A stretch of DNA of 64,000 nt from Clostridia bacterium (GTDB taxonomy: Bacteria; Bacillota; Clostridia; UMGS1883). Both the position numbers and the translations under genes were made by a program. Location of the stretch: assembly GCA_017472685.1 (NCBI GenBank), contig JAFUOO010000022.1, positions 77,483 to 141,482 on the forward strand. The letters run 5' to 3'. This document shows positions 31,044-64,000 of the stretch, one piece after another (within the stretch, counting starts at the first letter, position 1; each line of letters opens with the position of its first letter). Under the pieces are notes generated by a model. It ran no database searches. It had not been told where the DNA came from and saw nothing but the letters and a program-made list of their open reading frames with translations.

Positions 31044-31100
31044 TGAGTTTTCGCAACTTTTTTTCCGTGTAAAAATAAATGGGATATTTTAGTATGTAAT
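31044..31100. repeat. direct repeat copy B
   Basis: ttttcgcaactttttttccgtgtaaaaataaatgggatattttagtatgtaat matches 28546-28605. Confidence 0.7.
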
Positions 31101-32548: not shown

Positions 32549-32553
32549 TTAAA

Positions 32554-44805: not shown

Positions 44806-44833
44806 AAAAAGCTTGCCGACGGCAAGCTTTTTT
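44806..44833. terminator. bidirectional terminator between convergent genes
   Basis: aaaaagcttgccgacggcaagcttttt. Confidence 0.85.
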
Positions 44834-44836
44834 ACT

Positions 44837-45350: not shown

Positions 45351-45465
45351 CTCAATCGCTCCTTTTTATTGATTGTATCATAAGAAAATCCTTTTCGCAA
45401 CTGTTTGACAGAAATATTCTGTTATGATAAAATGTTCTTAATTAAGCATTTTTTGGAGTGGTTTC

Positions 45466-47190: not shown

Positions 47191-48961
47191 GAAGAAAAAT
47201 GTAAAAGGCATATTTTTACGACTGTGCGGATATGTTTTTTGTTACTGGTATCTTTTTATCCCTGCGGTTATACTGACGCTTCTGTCAAACCAGCTTTCTC
47301 TTCTCGGGCCCAGGTTTTCGGGCGATGCAATTGACGCCATTGCAGCAGTGGGCGGAGTTCAGTTTGACAAGGTGCAAAGCGCTGTAATAGCTATGGTAGT
47401 ATGTTACATCCTTTCGGCGCTTTTGAGCTACATACTTGCGGTGCTGATGATTTTTATCGGTCAGAAAATTGTTTATACCATGCGCCGTGAGGTTTTTGAA
47501 AAACTGACAAGTCTTCCTGTGGGCTACTTTGACACACATCCTGCAGGTGATTTGATAAGCCGTATTTCATATGATATAGACACAATCAATTCAACTCTTT
47601 CTCATGACCTTGTACAGGTTATGACAAGCGTGTATACGGTTGTGGGGTCACTTATATTCATGTGGAATATATCAAAGCCCCTTATTCTTGTTTTTACAAT
47701 TACAGTGCCCTGCGCAGTGTTGTTCACAAGATTCCGTTCAAAAAGGATAAGACCCCTGTTCTCTGAACGAAGTAAAAAGCTGGGCGAGCTGAACGGATAT
47801 GCCGAGGAAATGCTTTCAGGCGTAAGAAGCATACAGGCATATGAAAGGGAGGAGGAAATTTCCTCCAGGTTCAATAAACGGAACAAGGAGTCTATGGACG
47901 CTTATTATAAAGCCGATTATTACGGCTGTACCATGGGTCCTACGGTGAATTTTATCAACAATCTGTCAATCTCTCTTGTTATGATAATGGGCGGCATTTT
48001 ATACCTTTATTCTCAGAACGGCGTGGCACCAATTGGCTCTTTCTTTTTCATAACATTGGGCGGCGTTGCACAGTTTGTGCAGTATTCGAGAAAATTTGCA
48101 GGCCCCATAAACGAATTTGCCAATATTTTAAGCGAATTCCAGTCTGCATTTTCCGCAGCAGAGCGAGTTTTCAGAATTATTGATGCGGATGCCGAAAAAG
48201 CCGATTGTGAAAATGCAAAAATTCTTGAAAATGTAAAAGGCGATGTTGAGTTCGAAAACGTAAAATTCGGTTACGTGCCCGATAAAACAATTCTGCACGG
48301 CATATCCTTCAAGGCTCCAAAAGGCAAAACGGTTGCCATTGTTGGCCCTACGGGAGCGGGTAAAACAACAATAATCAGTCTTCTCATGCGCTTTTACGAC
48401 GCAACAAGCGGAAGGATAACCGTTGACGGGGCTTCTTCCACCGCCGTAACGCGGAAATCTCTTCGCAGCGCATATACAATGGTGCTTCAGGATACATGGC
48501 TTTTTGCAGGCAGCATATATGATAATATTGCCTACGGCCGCGAAGGTGCAACCATGGACGAGGTAATTGCCGCGGCGAAATCGGCGCGAATTCACTCTTA
48601 TATTGAAAGTCTGCCTGAAGGCTACAATACCATTCTGACGGATGACGGCATAAACATTTCAAAGGGGCAGAAACAGCTTATAACAATTGCACGTGCTATG
48701 ATTTCCTCTTCGCCCATGCTTATACTGGACGAAGCAACAAGCAACGTTGACTCAAGGACCGAGATTAAAATTCAGGAAGCAATGAAAGAGCTTATGAAAG
48801 GACGAACCTGTTTCATTATTGCTCATCGTTTGTCGACAATTCAGAATTCTGATGTTATTCTTGTTCTTCAGGACGGTAAAATAACAGAAATGGGCAACCA
48901 TGACGAGCTGATGGCAAAGGGTGGATTTTACAGCAGCCTTTACAATTCTCAATACGAATAA
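47177..48961 (+). CDS. ABC transporter permease/ATP-binding protein (second half of a heterodimeric exporter)
   Basis: Walker A GPTGAGKTT and Walker B LILDEATS; the C-loop here reads ISKGQKQL instead of the canonical LSGGQ. A TTG start with GGAGG ribosome-binding site overlaps the upstream stop. Confidence 0.8.
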   Translation, partial: PLLTKKKNVKGIFLRLCGYVFCYWYLFIPAVILTLLSNQLSLLGPRFSGDAIDAIAAVGGVQFDKVQSAVIAMVVCYILSALLSYILAVLMIFIGQKIVYTMRREVFEKLTSLPVGYFDTHPAGDLISRISYDIDTINSTLSHDLVQVMTSVYTVVGSLIFMWNISKPLILVFTITVPCAVLFTRFRSKRIRPLFSERSKKLGELNGYAEEMLSGVRSIQAYEREEEISSRFNKRNKESMDAYYKADYYGCTMGPTVNFINNLSISLVMIMGGILYLYSQNGVAPIGSFFFITLGGVAQFVQYSRKFAGPINEFANILSEFQSAFSAAERVFRIIDADAEKADCENAKILENVKGDVEFENVKFGYVPDKTILHGISFKAPKGKTVAIVGPTGAGKTTIISLLMRFYDATSGRITVDGASSTAVTRKSLRSAYTMVLQDTWLFAGSIYDNIAYGREGATMDEVIAAAKSARIHSYIESLPEGYNTILTDDGINISKGQKQLITIARAMISSSPMLILDEATSNVDSRTEIKIQEAMKELMKGRTCFIIAHRLSTIQNSDVILVLQDGKITEMGNHDELMAKGGFYSSLYNSQYE

Positions 48962-48964
48962 ACA

Positions 48965-48997
48965 AAAAGCGGTGTTCTGAAAAGAAACACCGCTTTT
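48965..48997. terminator. bidirectional terminator
   Basis: aaaagcggtgttctgaaaagaaacaccgctttt. Confidence 0.8.
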
Positions 48998-48998
48998 G

Positions 48999-49487
48999 TC
49001 ATATGAATTTAACAGGCAAGGGCTCGCAATCCATGCTCTTTAAAATATCCGACACCGACTGTCTTCCGTGAAGGCTCAAAAGCTTGCTCGTGCCGTAGGC
49101 AATTATTTTACCTGTTTCGTCTGTCATGGTAACCTCGCACAGAACAATGCTTCTGCCTTCTTTAATGGCAGTAGCTGTTGCAATGAGCTTGCCCGAGTAT
49201 GCCATGGCAAGGTTTGTCACCTCTAAATCAAGGCTTGTGAAGCCGCTGTCCTCGTCCTTGTTGCAGTAGGCTGCCCAGTATGCGGCAGAGTCAATGAGCG
49301 AAGCGTAACAGCCTCCGTGAACACTGCCGAAGGGGTTTAAGTGCTTGGGCTCTATATCCATTTCGATTATGGAAAACCCCGGTCCCAGGTCAACAAGCTT
49401 CATATTCAGCAGGACTGAATAGGGGCTCTGGTTAACAACATCCTTAAGCTTTTCAATATGCAAAGGATTAATCTTTTTCTGCTCCAT
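48999..49487 (-). CDS. PaaI/hotdog-fold thioesterase
   Basis: GSVHGGCYASLID motif and 162 aa. Confidence 0.7.
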   Translation of the reverse strand: MEQKKINPLHIEKLKDVVNQSPYSVLLNMKLVDLGPGFSIIEMDIEPKHLNPFGSVHGGCYASLIDSAAYWAAYCNKDEDSGFTSLDLEVTNLAMAYSGKLIATATAIKEGRSIVLCEVTMTDETGKIIAYGTSKLLSLHGRQSVSDILKSMDCEPLPVKFI

Positions 49488-49560
49488 AATAACTGCTCCT
49501 TAATTGTACTGATAAAATTATATCATTGAATAACAGGAAATTCAATGATATAATTGTGTT

Positions 49561-50103
49561 ATGATAAAGCATATTATTTTAAACGGACGCAAAATTGAAT
49601 ACACCCTGCAGTATAAAAGTGTGAAAAACATAAATCTTCGCATCAAAGGTGATGGCAGTGTGCATGTTTCGGCAAACAGGAGGACACCGCTTGATGCCAT
49701 TGAAGATTTTATGCACAAAAAAGCACACCTGATACTGAAAGCCATTGACAATTGCCAAAAGAGTGAACTGAAAGAATATTTCACCGAGGATGACTTGAAA
49801 CGCTTTATACTGTTGTCTTGTGAACGGGTTTACCCATACTATGCAGAAAAAGGCATAGCAAAGCCCGAGGTTAAATTCCGCAAAATGGTTTCCAAATGGG
49901 GCTGCTGTAATATTACAAAGAAAACAATCACCTTTTCAACTAATCTCAAGTTTGCACCTGCCGAGTGTGTGATGTATGTAATATGGCACGAATTTACGCA
50001 CCTTTTGGTGCCAAACCATTCCAAGGCGTTTTACCTTGAGCTTGAAAAGGTGTGCCCCGATTGGAAAGGGTGCAGACAAAAGATGAAAGGGATAAAAATA
50101 TGA
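49561..50103 (+). CDS. YgjP-like (DUF45, M48-related) metal-dependent hydrolase
   Basis: VKNINLRIKGDG N-terminus and a C-terminal WHEFTHL HExxH motif. Confidence 0.6.
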   Translation: MIKHIILNGRKIEYTLQYKSVKNINLRIKGDGSVHVSANRRTPLDAIEDFMHKKAHLILKAIDNCQKSELKEYFTEDDLKRFILLSCERVYPYYAEKGIAKPEVKFRKMVSKWGCCNITKKTITFSTNLKFAPAECVMYVIWHEFTHLLVPNHSKAFYLELEKVCPDWKGCRQKMKGIKI

Positions 50104-50816
50104 AAATGACAAGGCCATACATAATTTGTCACATGGTGACAAGTATTGACGGAAAGGTCACGGGGGACTTTTTGTACCGTCCCGAATGTGAAAAGGCAAC
50201 GGAGGTCTATTACGAAATCAACCGCAATTATAATGTTGACGGCTTTATCTGCGGGAGGGTAACCATGGAAAGTAGCTTTACAAATTGTTGGTATCCCGAT
50301 TTGTCAGCATATGATAGTGTTGAGGACAAGCGTGATTTTATTCCCCATAACCTTTCAGGCTTTTATGCTATAGCTTTTGACCCCAAGGGCAAGCTGGGCT
50401 GGAAGAGCAGCATTATTATTGACGATGACCCCGGCTATGGAAATGCGCAGATAATCGAGGTTTTAACAAAGCAGGTTGACTGTCGCTATCTTGGCTATCT
50501 TCAAAAAACGGGCATTCCGTACATCTTTGCAGGTGAAACCGAAATTGATGTTAAGACAGCTCTTTTTAAGCTTAAAAACCTTATGGGTATAGGCACCCTT
50601 CTTTTAGAGGGCGGAAGCATTGTAAACGGCTACTTTGAGCGTGCAGATGCTATCGACGAGCTTAGTTTGGTTGTGGCGCCTGTGGTTGCAAAGGGTGAGG
50701 ACAAGCCGCTTTTTACGGATGCATGCATTGCAGACTACAGATTGCTTGATGTTAAAAAATGTGATTATAGCGTTATATGGTTAAACTACAAAAAAGATAA
50801 AAGCTGCACAGAATAA
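50099..50816 (+). CDS. RibD-C-terminal / dihydrofolate-reductase-like domain protein
   Basis: ICHMVTSIDGKV...LLLEGGSIVNGYF. ATG at 50099 with ribosome-binding site. Confidence 0.55.
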
Positions 50817-50832
50817 TCAAAGGAGCAAGGTT

Positions 50833-52305
50833 ATGTCAAACATGTTGATACTTTCTATTACGAAAATCGGTGATTTACTGACTGAAAAAAGAATAACGAA
50901 AGACGAAAACGGACAACCAATAGATAATATTAATTTAGTCATACCCGAATATCAGCGCCCATATAAGTGGACCGCAAAAAATGTTAATCAGCTGCTGGAT
51001 GATATTATACAGGCAAAGAGTGAGAACAAGGAAGTATACCGCGTCGGAACACTCATTTTACATAAGGATAGAAACCGCGGAGAATACAATGTTGTGGACG
51101 GACAGCAACGAATAACAACCTTTGCATTGCTTCTGAAAGCATTGGGCGTTGGAAATGTTTCATTTCTTGAGCAGAAAATGACAGATAATCCCTATAACAG
51201 ATTTAACATTATCAATAACTATCGCACACTGAAGCGTCGTGTGGATAATTTGGCTGTTCAGAAGGGCGACCTTTGCAATTACATAAAAAACAATTGTGAA
51301 TTGATAGTTGTCATTACCGAAAATATTTCAGAGGCATTCCAATTTTTTGACTCCCAGAATGCACGCGGAAAAAAGCTATACCCACATGACCTCCTGAAAG
51401 CATACCATTTGCGGGAGATGAATGATTTGGATGCGGAGGAAACCGAAAAGATTGTTAAAACGTGGGAGGATTTAGACCAAAAAACACTTGCTGAGCTGTT
51501 TTCTGATTACTTATACCGTTTGAAAGAATGGATAAAGGGAAATAAGTCGGGTGAACTTAATGAGCACAATTATGATATGTTCAAGGGTGTAACGATGCAC
51601 GATAATTTTCCTTACGCACAGTTTTATAAAGGTGCATTTGCATACGCAGACAACATCAACAATTCGCCCATCCCGTTTGTTACGGGAATGCGTAAGCTCA
51701 GCGCTTTTCAGTTAGATACGCCTATTGTTGCCGGAAAACCGTTTTTTGACTATGCAAAACACTATTTTGAGCTTCTGGCGGATATAAGAAATAACGACAA
51801 ATACGAGGGGCATTTTATAAATGATAATAAAATAATGAAAACCTTAAATTTAAGGGAAAATCGCAATGGTGTAGGTAACACAATAGTAAGACGTATGCTT
51901 GACGCTGCCATACTTCTGTATATAGACAGATTCTGCCCTGAAAAGCCCACCGGCACAGATACCGAAATGCTTGACCAATTTGTAGTGTTTGCTTTTGTAT
52001 GGGCATACTCTCTCAGGGCACAATATCAAAATCTTGGTTGGCAAGCCGCTCAGAATTACATTATGGGAAACAATGGCAAAGTAACCAATTCGTTCAATCT
52101 TTATAAAGTCATAACAGAGAGCGATTCGCCCGTTGAACTTTTCAGCACACTTTCTGATAAAATTTTGCCACTGTCATATAATGATTTACCTGCATCCGAT
52201 AAGTACAGAGAAGCGAAAGTAGCAAATATAAACGAAAAAGATAAGAATGATGTTTATCAGAATTATCTTCATTTCTTCGTTGAGCATAATTTTTGGAGGG
52301 GATAA
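50833..52305 (+). CDS. DUF262 (ParB/GmrS-like NTPase) domain protein
   Basis: Hallmark motifs IPEYQRPYKW and DGQQRITT. Very low GC. Confidence 0.7.
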   Translation: MSNMLILSITKIGDLLTEKRITKDENGQPIDNINLVIPEYQRPYKWTAKNVNQLLDDIIQAKSENKEVYRVGTLILHKDRNRGEYNVVDGQQRITTFALLLKALGVGNVSFLEQKMTDNPYNRFNIINNYRTLKRRVDNLAVQKGDLCNYIKNNCELIVVITENISEAFQFFDSQNARGKKLYPHDLLKAYHLREMNDLDAEETEKIVKTWEDLDQKTLAELFSDYLYRLKEWIKGNKSGELNEHNYDMFKGVTMHDNFPYAQFYKGAFAYADNINNSPIPFVTGMRKLSAFQLDTPIVAGKPFFDYAKHYFELLADIRNNDKYEGHFINDNKIMKTLNLRENRNGVGNTIVRRMLDAAILLYIDRFCPEKPTGTDTEMLDQFVVFAFVWAYSLRAQYQNLGWQAAQNYIMGNNGKVTNSFNLYKVITESDSPVELFSTLSDKILPLSYNDLPASDKYREAKVANINEKDKNDVYQNYLHFFVEHNFWRG

Positions 52306-52307
52306 AA

Positions 52308-54359
52308 ATGAAAAATAAAGCATTGCCTCTTAAAGAGATTTCGGTTTCGGAATTGTATAACGGCAGCAACAAAATGATTTTTGAAGTGCCTGTTTATCAA
52401 AGAAATTACGCATGGGAAAAAGATGAAATATCCGCCCTGATCCAGGATGTATACGATGCCTGTATAAAGGGCTCGGATGTGTATTTCATCGGAACTCTCG
52501 TGACTTTTAATAAAGGTGATAATGTTTACGAGGTTATTGATGGTCAGCAGCGACTTACTACAATAAATCTTATTTTAAATGCCTTGCATATAAAGCCGAA
52601 CAACCCTCTCACGTATAAAGCACGAAAAAAATCAAATAACACAATAAAGCACATTCCATCCTTTGACATAGATGAAAAAGATCATGGCATTGTTAATGGC
52701 TTCAAGTATGCTGAAACATCGATAAACGAAAAAATTGCAAGTGATGATTTTGAAGCGTTTAAAACATATTTTCAAAACAATGTACACATCATTCATTACG
52801 AGGTCCCACGTGATATTGATTTGAATCATTATTTTGAGATAATGAATTCCCGCGGCGAACAGCTTGAAAAACACGAAATTGTAAAAGCACGTTTAATAAG
52901 CTATATAAAAAATGATTACGATAAAAGCACATTTAATTTTATATGGGAATGCTGCTCGGAAATGGGTGTATACGTACAGCAAAAATATAAGGAAAAAGAC
53001 GTTTTCGGACCTGATTTGTGTGAACTTATTGTCGATGCGTTTGAGCAGCTGCCTTTCACTAAAAAAGATTCCGAAGAACAGCTTTCCATTAATGCATTGA
53101 TTGAAAGCGAAGCTAAGTACGAATTGAAAAATCCTAACATATCAGATGACAAGCCCGATTCCTTTCAGCCTGTTATTGATTTTCAGAATTTCTTGCTGAT
53201 AGTTCTTAAAATAACAAGAATAACTAATGAGCATAATTTTAATCCCATCAGCTTTAACCTTGACGACAAAGAACTGATTAATGAATTTGAGAAAGTAGCC
53301 TGTGATAATTATGGCGGAAAGGAAAGCTTTGCAAAAAACTTTGCTTACAACTTATTAAAAATAAAATATCTGCTTGATAATTATGTGGTGCATCATTCCA
53401 ATGAGGAAGACACTATCGAAAACAACCCATGGAAGCTGCAGTATTGGCAGTATAATACTGATAAGAAAAAAGGTCCTCTCAGGTCATTGTGTAGTGATGA
53501 AGAGTTGCAACACAAGCTTGTGCAGCTGTTGTCCATGTTTGAGGTGTCATTTACTGCCCGACAAAGAAAAAATTATTTATTTTATTGCCTGCTGTTTTTG
53601 TTTGAAAAATATAATTCCCATACTTACGATGAAGACCTTTTGCCTGAATACGGGAATTTTGTGGAAGCTCTGGCAAAAAAATATTTTTGTGATGTTTATT
53701 TAGTTGAGGATAAACTGAATAATATCAACACGCCCAAGCCGGGCAGCTTTGACGAGGTTGTTTTATGTAATAATAAACTCAATGTGATAGCTGATAATCT
53801 GAACATCCATGTTTTTGAAAAAATTTACGGTGACGGAACTGTAGCCTCGAAAGGTGTACCGTTGTTTATTTTTAACTATCTGGACTATAAACTGTGGGAA
53901 TATTATGCAGAAAATCTGCGCGGTGAAAAACTGAAAGAAAAAAGTCCCGCACGTCGGGAGTTCTTTAACGAACTGGGGTGTAGCGATTTTGGACTTGATG
54001 TTTTTAATCAGTTTTATTTTTCAAGAACAAGGAGGAGCCTGGAGCACTACTATCCTCAGGCAAATATTACGAATTCAACCATGGATGATAATCAGATTAA
54101 TTGTTTGGGTAACTATGCAATGATAGGCAGTGCAATAAACAGCGCCGGTTCAAATTGGAGCCCAAAAACAAAATTAGACTGTTATCTGGACACATCGGGG
54201 AAAATAAAACAGGTTAGCGTAGCTTCGTTAAAGTTTATGATTATGATGCAAAAATGTAAGGATGAAGACAGAAAAGGTGAGAGAAATCCGGGGTGCGAAT
54301 GGATATTTGAGGACATAAAGGAACACCAGAAAAAAATGCTGAAATTTTTTGAAAAGTAA
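52308..54359 (+). CDS. DUF262-DUF1524 (GmrSD-like) protein with C-terminal His-Me-finger nuclease
   Basis: PVYQRNYAW and DGQQRLTT N-terminally. C-terminally SLEHYYPQ...N...GN is a DUF1524/HNH-like motif. ATG with GGAGGGG ribosome-binding site. Confidence 0.7.
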   Translation: MKNKALPLKEISVSELYNGSNKMIFEVPVYQRNYAWEKDEISALIQDVYDACIKGSDVYFIGTLVTFNKGDNVYEVIDGQQRLTTINLILNALHIKPNNPLTYKARKKSNNTIKHIPSFDIDEKDHGIVNGFKYAETSINEKIASDDFEAFKTYFQNNVHIIHYEVPRDIDLNHYFEIMNSRGEQLEKHEIVKARLISYIKNDYDKSTFNFIWECCSEMGVYVQQKYKEKDVFGPDLCELIVDAFEQLPFTKKDSEEQLSINALIESEAKYELKNPNISDDKPDSFQPVIDFQNFLLIVLKITRITNEHNFNPISFNLDDKELINEFEKVACDNYGGKESFAKNFAYNLLKIKYLLDNYVVHHSNEEDTIENNPWKLQYWQYNTDKKKGPLRSLCSDEELQHKLVQLLSMFEVSFTARQRKNYLFYCLLFLFEKYNSHTYDEDLLPEYGNFVEALAKKYFCDVYLVEDKLNNINTPKPGSFDEVVLCNNKLNVIADNLNIHVFEKIYGDGTVASKGVPLFIFNYLDYKLWEYYAENLRGEKLKEKSPARREFFNELGCSDFGLDVFNQFYFSRTRRSLEHYYPQANITNSTMDDNQINCLGNYAMIGSAINSAGSNWSPKTKLDCYLDTSGKIKQVSVASLKFMIMMQKCKDEDRKGERNPGCEWIFEDIKEHQKKMLKFFEK

Positions 54360-54370
54360 AGGAGTAAAAA

Positions 54371-54931
54371 ATGAGAAAAAATTTTGGAGCAAAAGCAATG
54401 CTTTATCCCATGCCGGTACTTATTATCGGCACATACGACAGTGAGGGAAGAGCAAACGCAATGAACGCCGCATGGGGCGGAATAAGCGAAGCGGATGAAA
54501 TATCCATCTGCGTGGACGACGGGCACAAAACGGCAGAAAACGTTATTGAAAGAAAAGCCTTTAGTGTAAGCGTGGCAGATTGTGAAAATGTTGTTTCTTG
54601 CGACTATGTAGGTATTGTTTCGGGCAACAACGAGCCGGACAAAATCAAAAAAGCGGGGTGGAGCGTTATAAAAAGCGAATTTGTGGACGCACCGCTTTTT
54701 GACAAGCTGCCCATGGCACTTGAATGCGAATTAAAGAGCTACGACAAGGAAACCTGCCGCTTGGTGGGACGGATTGTTAACGTCTGTGCCGACGAAAGCA
54801 TCCTGGGCGAGGACGGGCAGATAGACCTTAGCAAATTTAAACCCATAACCTACGACAGTGTGCATCATAACTATATCGCCTTGGGTGAAGTGGTGGGTAA
54901 AGCGTTTAATGACGGAAAGAAATTGAAGTAA
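54371..54931 (+). CDS. flavin reductase-like domain protein
   Basis: About 186 aa with an FMN-binding split-barrel (LYPMPVLIIGT...). Confidence 0.6.
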   Translation: MRKNFGAKAMLYPMPVLIIGTYDSEGRANAMNAAWGGISEADEISICVDDGHKTAENVIERKAFSVSVADCENVVSCDYVGIVSGNNEPDKIKKAGWSVIKSEFVDAPLFDKLPMALECELKSYDKETCRLVGRIVNVCADESILGEDGQIDLSKFKPITYDSVHHNYIALGEVVGKAFNDGKKLK

Positions 54932-54945
54932 AATTCCACAAAACA

Positions 54946-54978
54946 AAAGACAGCACCTTTTGGTACTGTCTTTTGTTT
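54946..54978 (+). terminator. rho-independent terminator (imperfect stem)
   Basis: aaagacagcaccttttggtactgtcttttgtttt. Confidence 0.65.
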
Positions 54979-54999
54979 TGTGGCGGAGAAGGTGGGATT
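54972..54999 (-). repeat. attachment-site-like direct repeat copy 1 (tRNA 3'-end core plus flank)
   Basis: tttgttttgtggcggagaaggtgggatt is repeated at 55074-55102. Confidence 0.6.
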
Positions 55000-55073
55000 T
55001 ACCCGTTCGGGCATAAACTTCGAATCCTTTCATCATCCAAAAAACAAAAAGCACTATCTTTCGATAATGCTCT

Positions 55074-55130
55074 TTGTTTTTTGTGGCGGAGAAGGTGGGA
55101 TTCGAACCCACGTCCCTCGGGGGGCATCAT
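55074..55130 (-). other. tRNA 3'-end fragment (T-arm, acceptor 3' strand, G discriminator, CCA) = attachment-site direct repeat copy 2; no complete cloverleaf
   Basis: The minus-strand sequence reads ...GGGACGTGGGTTCGAATCCCACCTTCTCCGCCA. The T-loop TTCGAAT is canonical. No matching 5' acceptor strand or D-arm could be found upstream on that strand. Confidence 0.55.
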
Positions 55131-55367
55131 GATTTCGAGTGATATACACTCTGACTTTCTTAATCGTTTCTACAATCTGATATAACTCTCTTGAAAGAGC
55201 TGAAAACCTGGAAAAATAAGGGTTTTTGGCTCTTTTTTGTGTGCTTAAGACTTGATTTTTGTGGCTTTTGAAAAATGTGATTTTAACACAAAAAATTCAC
55301 TTTGGGCAAAACTAGGGCAAAACAGATTTATACTTAAAAACCATTAAAACGTATGAAAGGGCACATT

Positions 55368-55643
55368 ATGAAAACGAAATGGAAGGAATTTTGCGAAGCT
55401 TGGCTTGCTGACGAGCCTGATATATTAACCGTGCTTGAAGTCAAACGTATCACAGGCTATTGCAAAAGCTCGGTGCAAGGCTGGATTGACAGAGGACTTG
55501 TTGTTGCCTTTCGGGCAAAACGGTCAAATAAAATTCCCAGGTCATCGCTGCTCAAATTTATGGCAAGTGATTATTTTCGCAATATGCACGTTAAATCAAA
55601 AAAGCTGAAGGAAAAATTAAGTGAGTTTGAAAGGATGGATTGA
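55368..55643 (+). CDS. excisionase/HTH-type DNA-binding protein
   Basis: VKRITGYCKSSVQGWIDRGLV resembles an HTH_17/Xis-like helix-turn-helix. Confidence 0.45.
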   Translation: MKTKWKEFCEAWLADEPDILTVLEVKRITGYCKSSVQGWIDRGLVVAFRAKRSNKIPRSSLLKFMASDYFRNMHVKSKKLKEKLSEFERMD

Positions 55644-55646
55644 TTT

Positions 55647-55997
55647 ATGAGGGTTGATTATATCAAATACGGAAGGGGCTATTTGCCCACTGCAGCACCG
55701 AAGGAGAGCTATGATATTTGCAGATTCGGACACGCATATTTAAGCTACTTAAAGCAAAATAAACGAGTATTATATTCACGGTTATTGATTACCGGAAGGC
55801 TTTTAAAGCATGTTGCACACGTGGATAAACTGGCCCGGCAGATGTACGATGATATCATTCGTGACAGAATTGGAGATGCACCGCCCAGAGAAAACCAGAA
55901 GGAATGGGACGAGTTTATAAATAGACTTCGCAATAGTGCCGAGAAAATCGTGTATAAGGAAATTCTTTTCAAAGATGAAAGAATCAGAGAGGTGTAA
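55647..55997 (+). CDS. hypothetical protein (116 aa)
   Basis: ORF within the island operon. Confidence 0.35.
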   Translation: MRVDYIKYGRGYLPTAAPKESYDICRFGHAYLSYLKQNKRVLYSRLLITGRLLKHVAHVDKLARQMYDDIIRDRIGDAPPRENQKEWDEFINRLRNSAEKIVYKEILFKDERIREV

Positions 55998-56004
55998 GAA
56001 AACC

Positions 56005-56814
56005 ATGAGAATAGCATACCCAATCGGATTTACACAAATACCCAATTACATACTACGCAGCAAGGTGTTAAAGCCCTTGCAAAAGGTCGTGCTTGCCGTT
56101 TTGTGTAGCTATGCCAATGATGAAAATCTCGCATTCCCGTCTTACCAGACTATTGCAAATGACAGCGGAATCAGCAGAAGAAAAGCCATTGAGATTATTG
56201 GTGACTTGGAAAGGCTTGGTTGCATCAGAAAGATTGCACAGAAAAGCACTAAGGGCGATAATACCGCCAATGATTATGTAGTTCTGATAGGTGGTGCAGA
56301 TTTTGCACTACCCGGTGAATCTCCTGCACTACCTGGTGAATATGGTGCACCACCCTGTGGTGAATCTCCTGCACCACGTGGTGAACGTCGTGCACCCAAT
56401 CAATATATAGATAATAATATTAATATTTATTTTAATAATAACCATCAATCCATCACGGCTGCCGAGATGGATGAGATGGAAGAACAAATCAAAGAAAATA
56501 TTGATTATACGATTTTGAAACAGAGCTATACAGACGGTATGCTTGAAGAAATTGTCAGCGTAATGGTAGAAGCTACTTGCGCTACTGCTACGACGATTCG
56601 TATTGGAGACAACGAATTTCCGCGAGAGGTTGTTAAAGCCCAAATGCTGAAGCTCGGCAGCGAGCATGTGGAGTATGTAATCGATTGCATCAAGAAAAAC
56701 ACTACCAAGGTACGAAACATAAAAGCCTATATGCTAAGGTGCATTTACAACGCTCCGCAGACCATAGCCCACTACTACACCGCAGAGGTGAATCACGATT
56801 TGTACGGCGGATAG
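56005..56814 (+). CDS. replication initiator / replisome organiser (N-terminal HTH, C-terminal DnaD-like domain) with internal Pro/Gly-rich tandem repeat
   Basis: The N-terminus (FPSYQTIANDSGISRRKAIEII) is a Rep-type winged helix. The C-terminus (KAQMLKLGSEHVEYVIDCIKKN...KAYMLRCI) is DnaD-like. DNA repeats lie at about 56290-56400. Confidence 0.55.
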   Translation: MRIAYPIGFTQIPNYILRSKVLKPLQKVVLAVLCSYANDENLAFPSYQTIANDSGISRRKAIEIIGDLERLGCIRKIAQKSTKGDNTANDYVVLIGGADFALPGESPALPGEYGAPPCGESPAPRGERRAPNQYIDNNINIYFNNNHQSITAAEMDEMEEQIKENIDYTILKQSYTDGMLEEIVSVMVEATCATATTIRIGDNEFPREVVKAQMLKLGSEHVEYVIDCIKKNTTKVRNIKAYMLRCIYNAPQTIAHYYTAEVNHDLYGG

Positions 56815-56925
56815 CTCAGAGCTGTAAAACGATAGTTTTTGTATTAGCAAGCACGGCATTTGTATAGACAAAAGCCGCTTGTTAGGGATAATCCCTAATA
56901 CCCATTTGTTATTGGAGGTGGAACT

Positions 56926-57243
56926 ATGAGATACAAGCAAAAGCAATTAAATTTTTATGTTTCTGATAAGGTGTGGGAAAAACTTCAAAAATTGAAAAAG
57001 AAATCAGGCTTAACTATGACAGCGATAATATCAAAACTTATCATGGGTTACGAAATTCATCCTCTTAAAACTGAAGAGCTTTTTAGAATATACAAAGAGC
57101 TGAACCATATAGGCAATAACATAAATCAAATTGCTCATATCGCCAATTTGGAAAAACATGTGTCTAAAGAAAAAATTAGCGAGGTAGAAAAGCTTATGGA
57201 CCAAATATGGGAATGTGTCTTAAGCTACGATGAGAAGAAATGA
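56926..57243 (+). CDS. MobC-like mobilisation accessory protein (no cognate relaxase present)
   Basis: About 105 aa with YKELNHIGNNINQIAHIAN, typical of MobC / Bacterial_mobilisation. Confidence 0.55.
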   Translation: MRYKQKQLNFYVSDKVWEKLQKLKKKSGLTMTAIISKLIMGYEIHPLKTEELFRIYKELNHIGNNINQIAHIANLEKHVSKEKISEVEKLMDQIWECVLSYDEKK

Positions 57244-57391
57244 TTATGAGCTTTGAAAAAACTGTATTACGAAAATCTAAATTCTGGCGAAAAACAGATT
57301 GGATGAGCGTATTTATAACCTTGAAAAAAGTTGACACAGAAAAAGAAATGTATATAATAAATTACAGAAGCTTTTTATTTTCCAAGGAGTT

Positions 57392-57604
57392 ATGATTATG
57401 AGTAAAGAAGGAAAGTTTTTAGTTTTTTGTATTGAACAATATAAGTCGGCCAAAAATTTAACAGGAAAACAGGTTGCAGAATTGTTCAGGAAGTATGAAG
57501 TATATGAATATATTTTTAGTTGCTACGGAGCGTTGCATACTACAGGAACAAACTATATTATTGCAGATATAGACTTATTTATCGAGGCACGACAAGCAGG
57601 CTGA
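57392..57604 (+). CDS. small hypothetical protein (DUF3791-like)
   Basis: 70-aa ORF with a GGAG ribosome-binding site. Confidence 0.4.
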   Translation: MIMSKEGKFLVFCIEQYKSAKNLTGKQVAELFRKYEVYEYIFSCYGALHTTGTNYIIADIDLFIEARQAG

Positions 57605-57799
57605 TAAAATTTAATTATGATAAACAATGAGGTTATGCACGTGAGAGCATAACCTCGTTTTTGTTGGTTTAAGCTTATAGGACTTTATGCTGATGATAAC
57701 GCGAAAGCCAATTAGTCAATCGTGAATTACTCATTTATACTTGACTAAATTGCTTTGTATGTGCTATACTATAGATAACCAAAAATGGAGGTCATACAT

Positions 57800-59194
57800 A
57801 TGTTTATTGGCAGAGAACGCGAGCTTAATGCTCTGAATAAACTTTATGAATCGAATAAATTTGAATTTGCTGTTATCTATGGCAGACGTCGTGTTGGTAA
57901 AACTGCGCTCATAAATGAGTTCATAGGCGATAAAAAAGCTATTTACTTTATGGGCGTTGAAAGCAACGCAAAGCAGAATCTTGAAAACTTTTCAAAAAGT
58001 ATTATGGAGTTTGCAAGCGGTATTGAAACGGAGTCCTCTTTCCTTTCTTTTCAGGCTGCATTAGAGTATGTTTTTAAGCTTGCAGAGAACGAAAGAATAA
58101 TCCTTGCTATTGACGAATACCCTTACGTGGCTCGTTCATCAAAAAGCCTTGCATCTACCTTACAGCTTTTAATTGATAAATATAAAGATAACTCAAAGTT
58201 GATGCTCATTCTCTGCGGTTCCTCTATGTCATACATGGAAGACCACGTGCTTGCATACAAAGCACCCTTATACGGTCGCAGAACGGCTCAAATGAAGCTT
58301 TTGCCATTTGACTTTGAAGAAACTTGCCGATATTTCAAAAACCTTTCTGACGAGGATAAGGCGCTTATTTACGGTATAGCAGGCGGTACGCCTCAGTACC
58401 TTTTGCAGATGGATGACAATTTAAGCGTTGAGGATAATATCAAAAACACATACTTGAATCCGATTTCATTCCTTTACGAAGAACCGACTAACCTTTTAAA
58501 ACAAGAGGTTCGTGAGCCTGCAATTTATACAGCTATCATTACAGCGATTGCAACAGGTTCATCAAGAATGTCGGAGATTTCAAGCAAGGTTGGCGAAGAT
58601 ACTAATGTTTGCACAAATTACATTAAGAACCTTATGAACCTTGGTATTGTGCAAAAGGAAACTCCCTACGGAGAAAAGGCTTCTCGTAAGTCGATTTACT
58701 CTATTGAGGATAATATGTTCCGTTTCTGGTATCGCTTTGTGCTTGATAATAATTCAATCATTGCCCGTGGTGCTGCTGATCTGGTTTATAAGAGAATTGA
58801 GCCTCAGCTTTCAGACTATATGGGTAAGGTTTTTGAAGAAATCTGTAAGCAGTACCTTTGGAAACAGCTTCTTTCAGGCAACTGCCCGGTAGAGTTCACT
58901 TCCCTTGGTCGTTGGTGGGGCAACGATCCTACAGAAAAATGCCAGGCAGAAATCGATATTATGGGCGAACAGGACAAAAACACAGCCCTCTTTGCAGAAT
59001 GCAAATGGACAAATGAAAAGGTTGACCTTGGCGTTTTAGAAACACTTGTAAAACGCGGCAATCTGTTCCCGTATAAAACAAAGCATTATTACCTGTTCTC
59101 AAAATCCGGATTTTCAAAGGGATGTGTGGATAAAGCGAATGAAATGGGTAATGTGAGTTTGGTAAATTATCGAGATATGGTGGAGGAAAAATAA
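57800..59194 (+). CDS. AAA-type ATPase of the COG1672 family with DUF234 C-terminal domain
   Basis: MFIGRERELNAL...YGRRRVGKTAL Walker A, and a conserved C-terminus. ATG at 57800. Confidence 0.6.
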   Translation: MFIGRERELNALNKLYESNKFEFAVIYGRRRVGKTALINEFIGDKKAIYFMGVESNAKQNLENFSKSIMEFASGIETESSFLSFQAALEYVFKLAENERIILAIDEYPYVARSSKSLASTLQLLIDKYKDNSKLMLILCGSSMSYMEDHVLAYKAPLYGRRTAQMKLLPFDFEETCRYFKNLSDEDKALIYGIAGGTPQYLLQMDDNLSVEDNIKNTYLNPISFLYEEPTNLLKQEVREPAIYTAIITAIATGSSRMSEISSKVGEDTNVCTNYIKNLMNLGIVQKETPYGEKASRKSIYSIEDNMFRFWYRFVLDNNSIIARGAADLVYKRIEPQLSDYMGKVFEEICKQYLWKQLLSGNCPVEFTSLGRWWGNDPTEKCQAEIDIMGEQDKNTALFAECKWTNEKVDLGVLETLVKRGNLFPYKTKHYYLFSKSGFSKGCVDKANEMGNVSLVNYRDMVEEK

Positions 59195-59279
59195 GATGGG
59201 ATAGTTAAGCTATAACTAATGGATTTGGAGATTTCTTTAAGATAATCATTTAAAAAAATAAACAAAAGGAGAATGAATT

Positions 59280-61310
59280 ATGCGTTTAATTAAAGCACGA
59301 GTACAAGGATATCGAAGTATAATTGATACAGGGTATTTTGAAGTGGAAAATGACAAAACAATTTTGGTTGGACCAAACGAAGCGGGAAAAACCGCAATTT
59401 TGCAAGCGTTACAAAAACTTAATCCTCCGGAAGGGGTTGCGTTATTTGATCCTTTGAGAGATTATCCTCGTTCTAAATATGATGAGGATATTAAAAACGG
59501 CAATATTGATTCTAGCACATTTACTGTAGTAGAAGGTCATTTTGCTTTGGAAGATGACGATAGAGATGAATTGCCAGAAGCCTACAAGGATGTTATTTAT
59601 GTCTGCGGACGATACTTAGATAATACAATGTGGCATCGACTGGATAACGCACCATCAAAACTTATTTTTTCTGAAATTGAAAAGGATTTATTGAAGATTT
59701 GTCAACATTACAAAAATACAAGCGTGGCAAATGGAGACCCAGAAGCCAAGCAGGTAGCTATACAAACTGGGTATGATACTGCAGTTTTATATCTTCGCAG
59801 GACAAGTGTTATCTCTAGCGTTAAGGCAAAACAAATCACTACTTGGTTGAAAAACAATTTAGTATATCTTGAAGATGATAATGCAACAGAAGAAAAGAGG
59901 TATGAAAAACTTCTTGAACTATTGGAAAAACCTATAGAACGCAATGATGTTCTTACAATTTGCGAAGAGAGATTACCTAAATTTATACTTTTTAGTAATT
60001 ATTTTAGAATTAAGCCAGTGTTGCATTTGAAGAAGTTAGCAGAACGCATCGACAAAAAAATGTTGGATGATGAACAGTATGACTACGGAAATATATGTTT
60101 GCTTAAATTTTTAGGGTTTACTCCCAAAGAACTTGCAGAAGCAGGCGAAACTTCAAAATATGATCTGAATAAACCGGATCAGTACGAGCAATATCGAGCG
60201 CAATTAGACAAAAGAGATTATCAACTAAATGCTGCTACTATTAGGCTTACAGATGCAATTTGTGAAATTTGGAATCCAAAAAAAGATGGGCGAGACGCAA
60301 ATAAGCTTAGAATTAAGGTTGATGGACAATATCTCAAGGTTGTTGTTGAAGACGATTTGGGTGTAGAAGTAGAACTTGATCAGCGTTCTGAAGGTTTCCA
60401 ATGGATGGTATCATTCTATGTTGTGTTCTTCGCAGAGGCATCTGATAAACATAAAAATGCAATTTTATTGTTAGATGAACCGGGTCAAAGTTTACATGCT
60501 CTTAAACAAGCAGAGTTTATTGAAACATTGACAAAATTGAGTAAGAAAAACCAAACATTGTATACTACACATTCCCCATTCCTTGTTGGGACAGATGAAC
60601 TTGATAAGGTCCGTGTTGTTGAGATGACAGATAGAACAACCGGTACAAAAGTAAATTTGTCGTTAACGGCTAGCGATAGTGGTGCAATGCTTCCATTACA
60701 AGAAGCGTTAGGCTACGATTTGGCGCAAAGTTTATTCTTCCATAAAAAGAACCTCGTTCTTGAAGGATTGACTGACATGTGGTATATAGAAAGTTTATCA
60801 GAGTTGTTTAAGGCCGATGGAAAAACTGGGATTAACGAACAAATTGCATTAATTCCTGCTAACTGCGCGAGCAAGGTAGTATATTTTGCAACAATTCTGC
60901 ACGCACAAAATCTTAAAATTTCGGCACTTTTGGATTCGGATGCAGAGGGAGAATTGGCGGCGAAACAAGAGACATTAATTAACGCAGTAGGTGCTAAGCG
61001 TATCCTAAGGACAAAGGATGTTTACAGTGGACAAGTATCTGCTGTTGAAATTGAGGATATACTTAGGGATACATTGTTGAATATCGCAAAAGATCAATGC
61101 GGTTGGGATGCTATAGCTGTTGCTAAAACACAAGCAAAACGTCCAATTGTAGATGTTTTAAAGAGTGTAGCAAAAGCTGATTTTTCTAAGTATAAGTTAT
61201 CTAAAGCTTTTATAAGATGGTCTCGGGATCACGGATTAAACGATTTACAACCTCATGAAATTGCACAGGCAGGACAACTTATAGAAAAGATTAACAAATC
61301 TCTTCAGTAA
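59280..61310 (+). CDS. OLD-family nuclease: ABC-type ATPase fused to a TOPRIM domain (stand-alone, class-1-like)
   Basis: N-terminal Walker A GPNEAGKT, and an ABC signature/Walker B region (LLLDEPGQSLH). C-terminal TOPRIM (LVLEGLTDMWYIE...DSDAEG). Confidence 0.7.
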   Translation: MRLIKARVQGYRSIIDTGYFEVENDKTILVGPNEAGKTAILQALQKLNPPEGVALFDPLRDYPRSKYDEDIKNGNIDSSTFTVVEGHFALEDDDRDELPEAYKDVIYVCGRYLDNTMWHRLDNAPSKLIFSEIEKDLLKICQHYKNTSVANGDPEAKQVAIQTGYDTAVLYLRRTSVISSVKAKQITTWLKNNLVYLEDDNATEEKRYEKLLELLEKPIERNDVLTICEERLPKFILFSNYFRIKPVLHLKKLAERIDKKMLDDEQYDYGNICLLKFLGFTPKELAEAGETSKYDLNKPDQYEQYRAQLDKRDYQLNAATIRLTDAICEIWNPKKDGRDANKLRIKVDGQYLKVVVEDDLGVEVELDQRSEGFQWMVSFYVVFFAEASDKHKNAILLLDEPGQSLHALKQAEFIETLTKLSKKNQTLYTTHSPFLVGTDELDKVRVVEMTDRTTGTKVNLSLTASDSGAMLPLQEALGYDLAQSLFFHKKNLVLEGLTDMWYIESLSELFKADGKTGINEQIALIPANCASKVVYFATILHAQNLKISALLDSDAEGELAAKQETLINAVGAKRILRTKDVYSGQVSAVEIEDILRDTLLNIAKDQCGWDAIAVAKTQAKRPIVDVLKSVAKADFSKYKLSKAFIRWSRDHGLNDLQPHEIAQAGQLIEKINKSLQ

Positions 61311-61312
61311 AC

Positions 61313-61355
61313 AAAAATAGAAGGTAGGTGTGTTTTACCTACCTTCTATTTTTGT
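61313..61355. terminator. strong bidirectional terminator
   Basis: aaaaatagaaggtaggtgtgttttacctaccttctattttt. Confidence 0.85.
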
Positions 61356-61363
61356 TTACTATA

Positions 61364-62305
61364 CTATCTGAATTCATCAAGCCAGGCTTGGAATTGCTCG
61401 AGGGTGATTTCACCGTTATAGCATTTTTTTCGTTCTGCACGGGCGAGCTTACCGAATTCTTTGAATTCTTCCTTTGTGATGAGCTTTGCTCTCTGACGGG
61501 AATCCATACGACGATAAGCCGTGATGTAGGCTTTGTGGATTGCATCATCTTTATGAACAATATCAAAGGTTTTAATTGCGCCGATTTCGCTACAAGGCTT
61601 TGTTTCACCTGACATAATTCTTTCGCAGTATTCGCTGTTTACACGACCACGGGGGATAAAATATTCACCGCAGCATTTACAGGGCTTAAGCTTAATCTTA
61701 TTTACAAGCATAAGCATTATATCAAAGCGGATTACATCGTCTATTGTTTCAAGGGGATAGACTGTGATGCCATTATCTGCATCAAATTGAGTTACAAAAT
61801 CAAAATTAAACAGCTTGCTCTCTTCACGGTGCTTTGTAAAGCGCTGAGGAAGAGAGCCTTCTTTATCTTTAATAATTTCATCTAACAATGGTTTGATTTC
61901 TGTCTTTTTCTTATGGATGCTTACGAGTATCGCATTAAGAAATTTTTCAAAATACTTTTTAGAGCCTTCTTCGGGTGCAATAAAATCACTTCCAAGGAAG
62001 GTTATAAATTCACTGCTACCGTTAGCAAGATAATCAATGAAAGAAGCAATATATATGGTCAAATAGCTGTTCTTGTCAACATAAGCAGCAGCTTTCTTGA
62101 CTGCCTGTTCTATGTCTCCGCCACCGAATGCAATAATTATATCAATGAAAATCAGTCTGAACATTTCGGTGTCAATCCAAAGAAAGTCAAAAAGAGCCTT
62201 GCCGGAGGTTGTGCCGACAACGGTTTCTTCTATCTGATCAAATTTTAACTTATATGAGGTCTGGTTGCCATTGGCAAAGCCAAAGATTTTTGTATTTTCT
62301 TTCAT
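61364..62305 (-). CDS. hypothetical protein with Cys cluster (CKCCG...C...C)
   Basis: The ORF extends to 62380. The preferred start is MKENTK at 62305, with a GAGGA ribosome-binding site. Confidence 0.4.
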   Translation of the reverse strand: MKENTKIFGFANGNQTSYKLKFDQIEETVVGTTSGKALFDFLWIDTEMFRLIFIDIIIAFGGGDIEQAVKKAAAYVDKNSYLTIYIASFIDYLANGSSEFITFLGSDFIAPEEGSKKYFEKFLNAILVSIHKKKTEIKPLLDEIIKDKEGSLPQRFTKHREESKLFNFDFVTQFDADNGITVYPLETIDDVIRFDIMLMLVNKIKLKPCKCCGEYFIPRGRVNSEYCERIMSGETKPCSEIGAIKTFDIVHKDDAIHKAYITAYRRMDSRQRAKLITKEEFKEFGKLARAERKKCYNGEITLEQFQAWLDEFR

Positions 62306-62529
62306 AATACATCCTCTTGATAAACGATTATAAATAATTCCTGAAAGTATTATATCGCGTCGTTTTTGAAAAGTCAACACAAATGCATAAAACGATTATT
62401 TGAAAACAAATTTTGAATAAACTTGACAAGCGTTGGGCGGTATGGTACACTATGAACGACGATAAGAAAAAATAAGTATAATAATCGCCAGAAACGCAAA
62501 CTAAGAATAACTAATGAGGAGGTGAAATC

Positions 62530-62724
62530 ATGAATGTATTAAACTATACACAAAAATTAAAGCATTATCCTGATGTGCTGACTACCGATCAGGCGGCTGA
62601 AATTCTTAATGTCAGCAAGAAAACGATTTATATGGCAATTAAAAACAAGGAACTACACGCTGTAAAAATTGGACGAGAATACAGGATAGTAAAAGCAAAG
62701 CTTGTTGAAATGCTGGTATCGTAA
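62530..62724 (+). CDS. excisionase-family HTH protein
   Basis: LTTDQAAEILNVSKKTIYMAIKNKEL is a classic Xis/MerR-type HTH. It lies directly upstream of int. Confidence 0.6.
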   Translation: MNVLNYTQKLKHYPDVLTTDQAAEILNVSKKTIYMAIKNKELHAVKIGREYRIVKAKLVEMLVS

Positions 62725-62732
62725 GAGGGTGA

Positions 62733-63929: not shown

Positions 63930-64000
63930 GGCAAATCGAGGCAAATTTGGGCAAAACAAGCCCTGTTTTAGATAAAGTAAATGCGGGCTTGCAACATAGC

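Follow-up and report, generated by a model that had tools for sequence, protein, structure and literature searches.

In classical tRNA gene (tDNA) islands, the attachment site of the element, attP, holds a tDNA fragment that restores the gene split by integration (Islander, PMC4383910). In the tRNA-dependent lysogeny of actinobacteriophages, a tyrosine integrase recombines at an 8–17-bp core within a tRNA gene without reconstructing it, and the phage-encoded cognate tRNA has been shown experimentally to be required (Guerrero-Bustamante & Hatfull, mBio 2024, PMC10865867); examples are Fionnbharth (tRNA-Lys-TTT, 10-bp core) and Gaia (tRNA-Leu-CAA, 8-bp core), the latter with its tRNA just downstream of the integrase gene, int. 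Prophage Lj965 of Lactobacillus johnsonii, in which the tRNA is reportedly not rebuilt and a cognate tRNA is carried, is a possible non-actinobacterial case (PMC10865867). Tycheposons of Prochlorococcus have partial tRNAs on their flanks and a full-length host tRNA adjacent (Hackl et al., bioRxiv 10.1101/2020.12.28.424599). Here we analysed 64,000 nt of a Clostridia bacterium contig (JAFUOO010000022.1; the whole stretch is referred to as the window), in which fragments of a serine tRNA gene, tRNA-Ser(CGA), adjoin an integrated island of ~9.1 kb. We find that this island very probably split the host tRNA-Ser(CGA) in its anticodon loop, did not rebuild the gene and brings a complete replacement tRNA, the longer of the two fragments at its left end being the host 3′ half.

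Results

Two tRNA-Ser(CGA) fragments at the island's left end

As the initial annotation of the window had reported, a tRNA-like repeat occurs twice. The 19-mer TGGCGGAGAAGGTGGGATT is found exactly two times on the plus strand, at 54981–54999 and 55084–55102, whereas chance would give ~0.01 matches when as many as 3 mismatches are tolerated, and 0 of 100 shuffles produced 2 matches. With the T-rich lead-in included, the copies agree at 27 of 29 positions (54971–54999 versus 55074–55102). On the minus strand the second copy reads GTGGG-TTCGAAT-CCCAC-CTTCTCC-G-CCA, the canonical T-arm and acceptor end that had been annotated there.

This long copy, F2, spans 55084–55140 (minus strand) and represents a tRNA-Ser(CGA) 3′ half that begins with the anticodon loop and ends in CCA; its full reading is ...A-CTCGAAA-TCATG-ATGCCCCCCGAGGGAC-GTGGG-TTCGAAT-CCCAC-CTTCTCC-G-CCA. 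It had been described as a 47-nt tRNA 3′ end. The tRNA 3′ end stands, and the length needs correction: identity to the complete tRNA described below covers 56–57 nt, including the variable arm, the 3′ strand of the anticodon stem and the whole loop CTCGAAA (anticodon CGA). The body of F2 (55084–55132) comprises the anticodon-stem 3′ strand TCATG, the variable arm, the T-arm, the acceptor 3′ strand, G73 and CCA, followed at 55133–55140 by the loop and its preceding A. Beyond F2 there is no 5′ stem strand, D-arm or 5′ acceptor strand. Neither ARAGORN, used for tRNA calling, nor Rfam, used for RNA families at the gathering threshold, detected a tRNA in the 64-kb window, the sole Rfam match being a Gut-1 RNA; the absence of a complete tRNA at this position, also anticipated by the initial annotation, was thus upheld.

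The short copy, F1 (54981–54999, minus strand), retains only 19 nt, AATCCCACCTTCTCCGCCA, corresponding to the 3′ part of the T-loop, the 3′ T-stem strand, the acceptor 3′ strand, G73 and CCA. Each copy has its own terminator-like hairpin directly 3′ in the tRNA orientation, and the two hairpins, both on the minus strand, are 73% identical. Hairpin I1, after F1 (54936–54983), has an inverted repeat of 22 nt that is 95% complementary, and is homologous to the terminator after the intact tRNA-Ser of an element-free relative, L012. Hairpin I2, after F2 (55038–55083), has an inverted repeat of 21 nt that is 90% complementary, with the 5′ arm AAAGAGCATTA. Between I2 and F1 lies a spacer of 38 nt (55000–55037, minus strand), which resembles the stretch of the tRNA with the anticodon loop and variable arm only marginally (local alignment versus shuffles, p~0.02).

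A complete tRNA and a displaced host 5′ half at the right end

The island runs from 55141 to ~270 bp past the window end. A metagenome scaffold, L001, matches window 44371–64000 with 0 mismatches and was therefore used as a stand-in for the sequence past base 64000. tRNA detection on this scaffold identified a complete 89-nt tRNA-Ser(cga) on the minus strand (L001 19648–19736; ARAGORN; Rfam tRNA, 56 bits), starting 89 bp after the int stop codon and 17 bp past base 64000. An intact tRNA is therefore present where the initial annotation had expected one, next to the integrase and beyond the window. A strong terminator-like hairpin separates it from int (L001 19611–19640), the first part of which, cut by the window end, occupies 63981–64000 (minus strand).

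A second tRNA 5′ half (L001 19897–19943) lies ~160 bp past the complete tRNA and is followed by a host tadA-like gene. In window-equivalent coordinates obtained through L001, the tRNA occupies 64018–64106, the intervening Y arm of the attachment site 64107–64267, the right-junction loop 64268–64274 and the host 5′ half 64275–64307. The displaced 5′ half agrees with the complete tRNA in all bases between a point 6 nt upstream of the tRNA 5′ end and the end of CTCGAAA, except for one D-loop base (T versus C), while F2 is identical to it from A+CTCGAAA to CCA, except for two variable-loop bases (CC in F2, TT in the element tRNA). Both identity boundaries fall on the anticodon loop. The common core, in which crossover would take place, is accordingly the 8 bp A+CTCGAAA, at 55133–55140 (minus strand) in the left junction, and the same boundary is found in relatives.

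Scanning reference genomes for the hybrid of an intact anticodon stem and a CC variable loop yielded five Clostridia/Oscillospiraceae metagenome-assembled genomes (MAGs). In two of these, L009 and L010, an uninterrupted tRNA is identical at 89 of 89 positions to the displaced 5′ half joined through the loop to F2, and ARAGORN calls this joined sequence tRNA-Ser(cga). The identity marks the displaced pieces as two halves of one host gene. The inferred attB, ...GGACATGA|CTCGAAA|TCATGATG..., equals this intact tRNA, and the inferred attP is ...GTGTATATCA|CTCGAAA|GCCTCTACC.... Rfam at permissive thresholds detected only tRNA in the junction regions and in L009, L010 and L012.

Ordinary chromosomal genes lie to the left of the repeats (ABC transporters, a thioesterase, two GmrSD-type genes and a flavin reductase), and the remaining window is also chromosomal. 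The flavin reductase (54371–54931, plus strand; Pfam Flavin_Reduct) anchors synteny with the element-free loci L012 and L038, being 84% identical to the former (tblastn, used for synteny) and 89% to its homologue in the latter. L012 is fully syntenic and carries, in order, the flavin reductase, one hairpin, an intact tRNA-Ser, tadA, a 306-amino acid (aa) open reading frame (ORF) and RNase H.

These results support the proposal of the initial annotation that site-specific integration through a tyrosine integrase displaced a tRNA-Ser 3′ portion, seen here as the long copy. The mechanism that this had implied, in which a 3′ piece of the element regenerates the host gene at the int end, does not fit: the element brings the complete tRNA in its entirety, displacement has also affected the host 5′ half, and attP and attB share only the anticodon loop.

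The arrangement in related elements

We gathered relatives through the integrase, at 80–87% identity, and through a pattern scan of metagenomes, and compared six host/element combinations (L001, L019, L022, L025, L028 and L036). All six share one order: host 5′ half, CTCGAAA, a conserved Y arm of ~158 bp, a complete tRNA-Ser(CGA), a hairpin and int. The displaced 5′ halves are host-specific, with the acceptors GGAGAAG, GGACAGG, GGACGGG, GGAGCGG and GGAGACG, and the flanking genes are unrelated among the combinations. The Y arm, by comparison, is homologous in six of six and adjoins a complete, internally consistent tRNA, which co-varies with the element and not with the host.

The most telling case is a 16.4-kb element of which both ends are covered by one scaffold (L025 and L030). 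Here the two displaced halves, the 5′ one (GGAGAAG..CATGA) and, 16.4 kb away at the far end, the 3′ one (TCATG..CTTCTCC), pair perfectly with each other, while the int-proximal tRNA is different and self-consistent (GGAGCGG..CGTGA / TCACG..CCGCTCC). An element that restores the 3′ half in the classical manner cannot give such an arrangement, which implies that the complete tRNA is cargo and that the host gene was split and left split. In line with this, chimaeras of a host 5′ half and an element 3′ half would have 1–2 acceptor-stem mismatches and up to 4 anticodon-stem mismatches in five of the six combinations, and ARAGORN rejects two of the three chimaeras given to it.

In a further related element (L035, ~6970–7230, plus strand), the carried tRNA-Ser(CGA) is in turn interrupted at CTCGAAA, where unrelated DNA (TCCATCAAATAATTTTGAATTTG...) takes over, so that the cargo tRNA regenerates a target site, a new attB, for another, different insert.

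The L025 element differs in its cargo unit. At L025 11190–11290 a terminator hairpin of host style comes after the carried tRNA (acceptor GGAGCGG) and reaches right up to the int stop codon; the second set of arm motifs described below is missing, and the 5′ half of the carried tRNA is 1 nt different from the host 5′ half of L028. Such comparisons suggest that elements may exchange cargo tRNAs with host genes.

Attachment site and arm-type motifs

The core and the 7-nt anticodon loop fall exactly together, with the replacement tRNA within ~160 bp, next to the Y arm. Neither the Y arm nor the X arm, on the element side of the left junction (55141–55352), is related to tRNA sequence; X ends in (T/C)ATCA in three elements. 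The motif GGGCAAAAC occurs in five exact copies in the 20.5 kb counted, against ~0.16 expected, all on the plus strand and all inside the element. On the X side, motifs of this type lie at +172 and +183 from the core (window 55304–55312 and 55315–55323, 11 bp apart), with the same positions in L001, L030 and L032. On the Y side they lie at −93/94 and −105/106, and in four of five elements also at −123/124. This is the layout expected of the arm-type integrase sites of a lambda-like attP, which would here be centred on the anticodon loop.

A second set of arm-type-like motifs (GGGCAAATC, GGCAAATTT and GGGCAAAAC; 63929–63957, plus strand) lies between int and the element tRNA and is paralogous to the motifs of the Y arm. 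The similarity extends over the whole tRNA–int spacer (L001 19560–19647; window 63930–64000 and beyond), which is paralogous to the Y arm (L001 19741–19897): both open with TTTATGCGG and both have three TTTGCC(C)-type repeats. The paralogy hints that the family may derive from a classical ancestor through arm duplication, the spacer being a possible trace of the change from a classical attP to split-and-replace integration.

Proposed integration mechanism and alternatives

The sequences show how the two junctions are built, with a core of 8 bp, a tRNA carried by the element and arm motifs that are conserved, and from this we propose the following course of events. Int, aided in excision by a 64-aa HTH_17 protein, would exchange strands within the anticodon-loop sequence. 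Integration would leave the host 5′ half at the right junction and the 3′ half, F2, at the left, with neither restored, because an attP of the form X|CTCGAAA|Y, without a tRNA 3′ half, cannot rebuild the host gene. The tRNA-Ser(CGA) that the element carries between int and the Y arm, equipped with a terminator hairpin of its own, presumably takes over the lost function. Precise excision by Int/Xis would rejoin the two host halves, giving an excised element with the attP sequence GAGTGTATATCACTCGAAAGCCTCTACCTCA and a host attB of sequence GGACATGACTCGAAATCATGATGCCCCCCGA. Carriage of a whole gene would make integration independent of host stem sequences, which differ among hosts; the mismatches of the chimaeras in five of the six combinations argue that it removes the constraint of stem matching.

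A classical tRNA-targeting island would have an attP that carries the tRNA 3′ half and would read X|CTCGAAA|TCATGATGCCCCTT..., that is, GAGTGTATATCACTCGAAATCATGATGCCCCTTGA. The gene beside int would then be a chimaera of a host 5′ and an element 3′ part, F2 would be the displaced piece, and the extra 5′ half and the Y arm would be unrelated host DNA. The locus does bear the Islander signature of a tDNA, an integrase and a 3′ fragment (PMC4383910), a chimaera would fold perfectly at the window locus, and the tRNA–int spacer has arm-like motifs of its own. Against this, the conserved Y arm accompanies the element in hosts whose flanks are unrelated, the Y-side distances between arm motifs and loop are fixed, and the pairing of the displaced 3′ half with the displaced 5′ half in L025/L030, and not with the int-proximal tRNA, already contradicts a classical island, which we consider very improbable. 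We attach similarly little probability to a scheme of two tandem elements, which would explain F1, F2 and the 5′ half together. A miniature element consisting of the Y arm, the complete tRNA, I2 and the spacer would have split an ancestral tRNA, leaving the 5′ half on the right and F1, as a decayed 3′ half, on the left, and a classical island would then have entered the tRNA of the miniature element and displaced F2. Nested insertion into an element-borne tRNA does occur (L035), and the spacer before F1 is weakly loop- and variable-arm-like (p~0.02). Under this scheme the left junction of relatives should contain a third 3′ half, and their displaced 3′ half should fit the int-proximal 5′ half, and neither is the case in L030; moreover, the D-loop T and the variable-loop CC co-occur in the intact tRNAs of L009 and L010, as fits a 5′ half and an F2 that come from one gene.

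It is also conceivable that no mobile element was involved and that the repeats arose by chance or by local tandem duplication of a tRNA 3′ end with its terminator, given that two units of hairpin and 19-nt tRNA end lie ~103 bp apart in direct orientation. Chance is excluded by the repeat statistics, the spacer is unlike the sequence downstream of I1, which leaves no simple tandem duplication, and F2 stops exactly at the anticodon loop, where element DNA begins. This refutes the idea for F2, and we give it almost no credence overall; for F1 alone, some duplication or unequal-recombination origin is possible.

Several observations nevertheless weigh against split-and-replace integration at this locus or against present mobility of the island. 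The host and element tRNAs of the window locus differ at 3 bases only, so that a classical chimaera would be functional here too, and the non-classical reading of this locus depends on the displaced 5′ half and on the relatives. A consensus scan for a sigma-70 promoter of the element tRNA returned one weak site, no better than shuffles. Among contigs with an identical flavin reductase, no element-free version of the locus of the exact strain was found, short Logan contigs breaking within the repeated tRNA sequence; in every strain contig reaching past the fragments (at least 6 samples), the element is present with ≥99.7% identity. The excised-circle junction X|CTCGAAA|Y gave 0 matches in IMG/VR (GTNNATCACTCGAAAGNNTNTACNTCNAANG) and 0 in JGI metagenome contigs (ATCACTCGAAAGNNTNTACNTCNAANG), a weak and uninformative negative since the samples of the element are ENA/Logan assemblies. 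A PF03432 relaxase is present in the relative L032, and tblastn with this protein gave no match in the window. Finally, some strain copies have frameshifts in nikA and in the OLD-family gene: in L015, an otherwise 99.8%-identical island copy, NikA/MobC is truncated to 44 aa (3025–3159) and the OLD-family gene is split into ORFs of 293 and 388 aa (5365–7384), apparent signs of decay in a vertically inherited copy. As no circular form was found, all strain contigs are occupied, frameshifts occur and the relaxase is absent, the window island may be a fixed, decaying insertion and not an active element.

The short fragment

F1 and I1 lie 49 nt after the flavin reductase stop codon. In L012 the 3′ end of the intact tRNA lies 44 nt after this stop, behind a homologous hairpin. 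In L038, the closest relative (89%), a single hairpin follows the flavin reductase, then a tRNA end with an intact T-arm; the arm of this hairpin, AAAGAGCATTA, matches I2 (11-nt arm match). Both hairpin and tRNA-end units are found in tandem in the window lineage only. The place of F1 and I1 at the orthologous tRNA-end position of syntenic relatives points to their being a relic that would be older than, and independent of, the present island. The initial annotation had taken the short copy for the scar of an earlier or tandem event; its position fits an older event, possibly an integration.

How F1 arose can be framed in several ways. An earlier element carrying a tRNA with a host-type terminator, followed by deletions, is a plausible route, and such cargo exists, because the L025 element carries a tRNA with a host-style terminator. 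The scar of a classical island of the T-loop type and unequal recombination are equally possible. The F1/I1 relic, standing beside a foreign-looking unit of tRNA and I2, could also be the footprint of an element tRNA overwriting a host allele.

Three further ideas were tried and set aside. Simple tandem duplication was rejected for F1 because of the dissimilarity of the spacer noted above. A division of the terminators into an L012-type allele (I1) and an L010-type allele (I2) gave no discrimination, as pairwise identities are all 77–81%. The spacer and F1 as a decayed full 3′ half remained marginal (p~0.02); the analogous L010 segment also gave p~0.02, and the window spacer against L010 p~0.39.

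Gene content of the island

Gene assignments are based on Pfam domains and, for defence genes, on PADLOC. Behind the X arm, the plus strand encodes an HTH_17 (MerR/excisionase-like) small protein (55368–55643; Pfam), which is also a called gene in L001, and a TnpV-family protein (55647–55997; Pfam PF14198, E=9e-18). These are followed by an HTH_36 and DUF6017 protein (56005–56814; Pfam), a replication-initiator-like backbone gene of the element family with 753 homologues, and by a NikA/MobC-like relaxosome accessory protein (56926–57243; Pfam), with no relaxase gene after it in this copy. Two cargo genes come next on the same strand: an ATPase_2/DUF234 ATPase (57800–59194; Pfam), which is the PADLOC candidate PDC-S27, and an OLD-family ATPase-TOPRIM nuclease (59280–61310; Pfam, PADLOC).

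A DUF6076 protein on the minus strand (61364–62305; Pfam) forms, with the next two genes, a module kept in all relatives. The first of these two encodes the 64-aa HTH_17 protein (62530–62724, plus strand), a candidate excisionase or directionality factor; it lies immediately upstream of int and is called with HTH_17 in all relatives, and an excisionase or directionality role is likely. The second is the tyrosine integrase gene (62739–63929, plus strand; Pfam Phage_int_SAM_3 and Phage_integrase), a 100% match to a protein annotated as 'site-specific integrase [Clostridia bacterium]' (P0001), whose called gene begins 2 codons after the start of our 398-aa reading. It has ~6000 homologues; its relatives form over 100 clusters at ≥70% identity, and none was found in IMG/VR. 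With Pfam, no virion, packaging or lysis genes were found in the 9.1 kb of the island.

Other features of the tRNA site and the window

On the host side of the tRNA site, two adjacent genes with GmrSD_N domains (50833–54359, plus strand) lie in a low-GC stretch (0.355–0.37), one of them with DUF7834; the PADLOC assignment is HEC-06/Orf5-like. The pair is present in contigs of the same strain and may be another acquired defence module, because it is absent next to the flavin reductase in L038, L039 and L047.

The site also varies among relatives. L039 and L040, a sister species from the same samples, show an inversion of the tadA–tRNA-Ser segment with respect to the flavin reductase and the 306-aa ORF (L039/L040 6560–7500 versus L012 2530–3570), an orientation that differs from both L012 and the window lineage. 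Upstream of tRNA-Ser in L012 (~2667–2860), L010 (~1759–1960) and L039 (7106–7297), an insert of ~130–160 nt follows position 18 of the tRNA, in the D-loop. These inserts have direct repeats of the tRNA promoter and first 18 nt on both flanks and share the hairpin motif GCGCATCC(C/T)GCGGATGA, with a second hairpin at the end and no Rfam family match. In L010 a related segment of ~150 nt interrupts a decayed tRNA-like 3′ end downstream of the terminator. The D-loop inserts may represent a different small element or scar type aimed at the same tRNA gene. Beyond the displaced host 5′ half, L019 (11700–21179) carries phage-like genes (tape-measure, terminase) and L022 (8200–11685) another DUF6017-type element. 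The neighbourhood of tRNA-Ser(CGA) appears to be a general hot spot for mobile DNA.

Two further features lie elsewhere in the window. The Gut-1 RNA (RF01706, Rfam; 16056–16133, plus strand) is a full-length match of 52.2 bits, against a gathering score of 50, and is intergenic, with ORFs at 14604–16016 and 16150–16434 on either side. Genes for a WYL-domain protein, a DUF3825 protein, an SPFH/Band-7 protein and an RtcB RNA ligase cluster at 26346–33762; this cluster may be related to RNA repair or defence and has no relation to the tRNA finding.

Discussion

Within a literature coverage that is incomplete, split-and-replace tRNA integration, previously a phage phenomenon, is here found in a family of small defence islands of gut Clostridia that resemble integrative and mobilizable elements (IMEs). 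Our search for cases outside phages, which included papers citing PMC10865867, gave phage and prophage cases only; given its incomplete coverage, a prior description is possible. We therefore suggest only tentatively that these islands of gut Oscillospiraceae-like Clostridia may form the first family outside phages to be recognised as integrating by a split of a tRNA gene exactly at the anticodon loop and compensating with a portable, complete tRNA gene.

If this reading is right, split-and-replace integration would not be limited to actinobacteriophages but would also be used by a widespread family of small defence islands in gut Clostridia. The element would be freed from matching host tRNA stems and could reach a broader host range: an 8-bp target in every tRNA-Ser(CGA) would admit hosts whose stems are incompatible with any fixed 3′ half. 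The carried tRNA would regenerate a fresh attB for further insertions, as in the nested L035 case, and element-borne alleles could overwrite host tRNA alleles over time. Imprecise loss of the island would be discouraged wherever the tRNA is single-copy. There are consequences for annotation, too. Islander-type logic, in which a tRNA gene and a tRNA fragment mark the ends of an island, would call this locus classical, place its right boundary ~260 bp too far inward and label the element-borne tRNA as the host gene, with the result that tRNA censuses would count a mobile gene as core.

IMEs of Firmicutes are reportedly small and target a tRNA gene; they encode an Int/Xis module and a relaxosome accessory protein, and lack genes for a conjugation pore. 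To our knowledge, those reported from tRNA genes enter at the 3′ end and leave the gene whole. The present family is similar in its small size, its tRNA target and its lack of conjugation pore genes, and in having its own module of Int and a 64-aa HTH_17 protein, a NikA/MobC-like gene and, in the relative L032, a relaxase; it differs in that the relaxase is absent from the window copy and that the tRNA gene is split. Like Tycheposons, these are non-phage, tRNA-targeting cargo and defence islands with a tyrosine recombinase, and successive integrations leave scattered partial tRNAs; unlike them, they carry a replacement tRNA, Tycheposons being described with classical restoration and without mention of such a tRNA.

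With classical islands, in the anticodon-loop 'A' site class of the Williams sublocation classes, the family shares a tyrosine integrase near one end, crossover in the anticodon loop and a displaced 3′ tDNA fragment at the distal end, and in both, repeated use of the site leaves extra partial tRNAs. It departs from them in leaving the gene unrestored, with displacement of both halves, and in carrying an entire tRNA gene. Lj965, as described, likewise has a Firmicutes host, a tRNA that is reportedly not rebuilt and a cognate tRNA that is carried, but it is a prophage, not an IME-like island.

The closest counterpart is tRNA-dependent lysogeny. Both systems have a lambda-like tyrosine integrase with arm-type sites, an attB inside a host tRNA gene, a core of ~8 bp and no functional tRNA at either junction; in six of six combinations of the Clostridia family, int and the Y arm have a complete tRNA-Ser(cga) between them, and, as in Gaia, the carried tRNA is next to int. 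The carrier, by contrast, is not a phage but an island of 9–16 kb with TnpV, DUF6017, NikA/MobC, a relaxase in one relative and defence cargo. The hosts are gut Clostridia (Oscillospiraceae-like MAGs) instead of actinobacteria, the target is tRNA-Ser(CGA), the core is the anticodon loop itself, and the replacement role of the carried tRNA, demonstrated by experiment in the phages, is here predicted from sequence.

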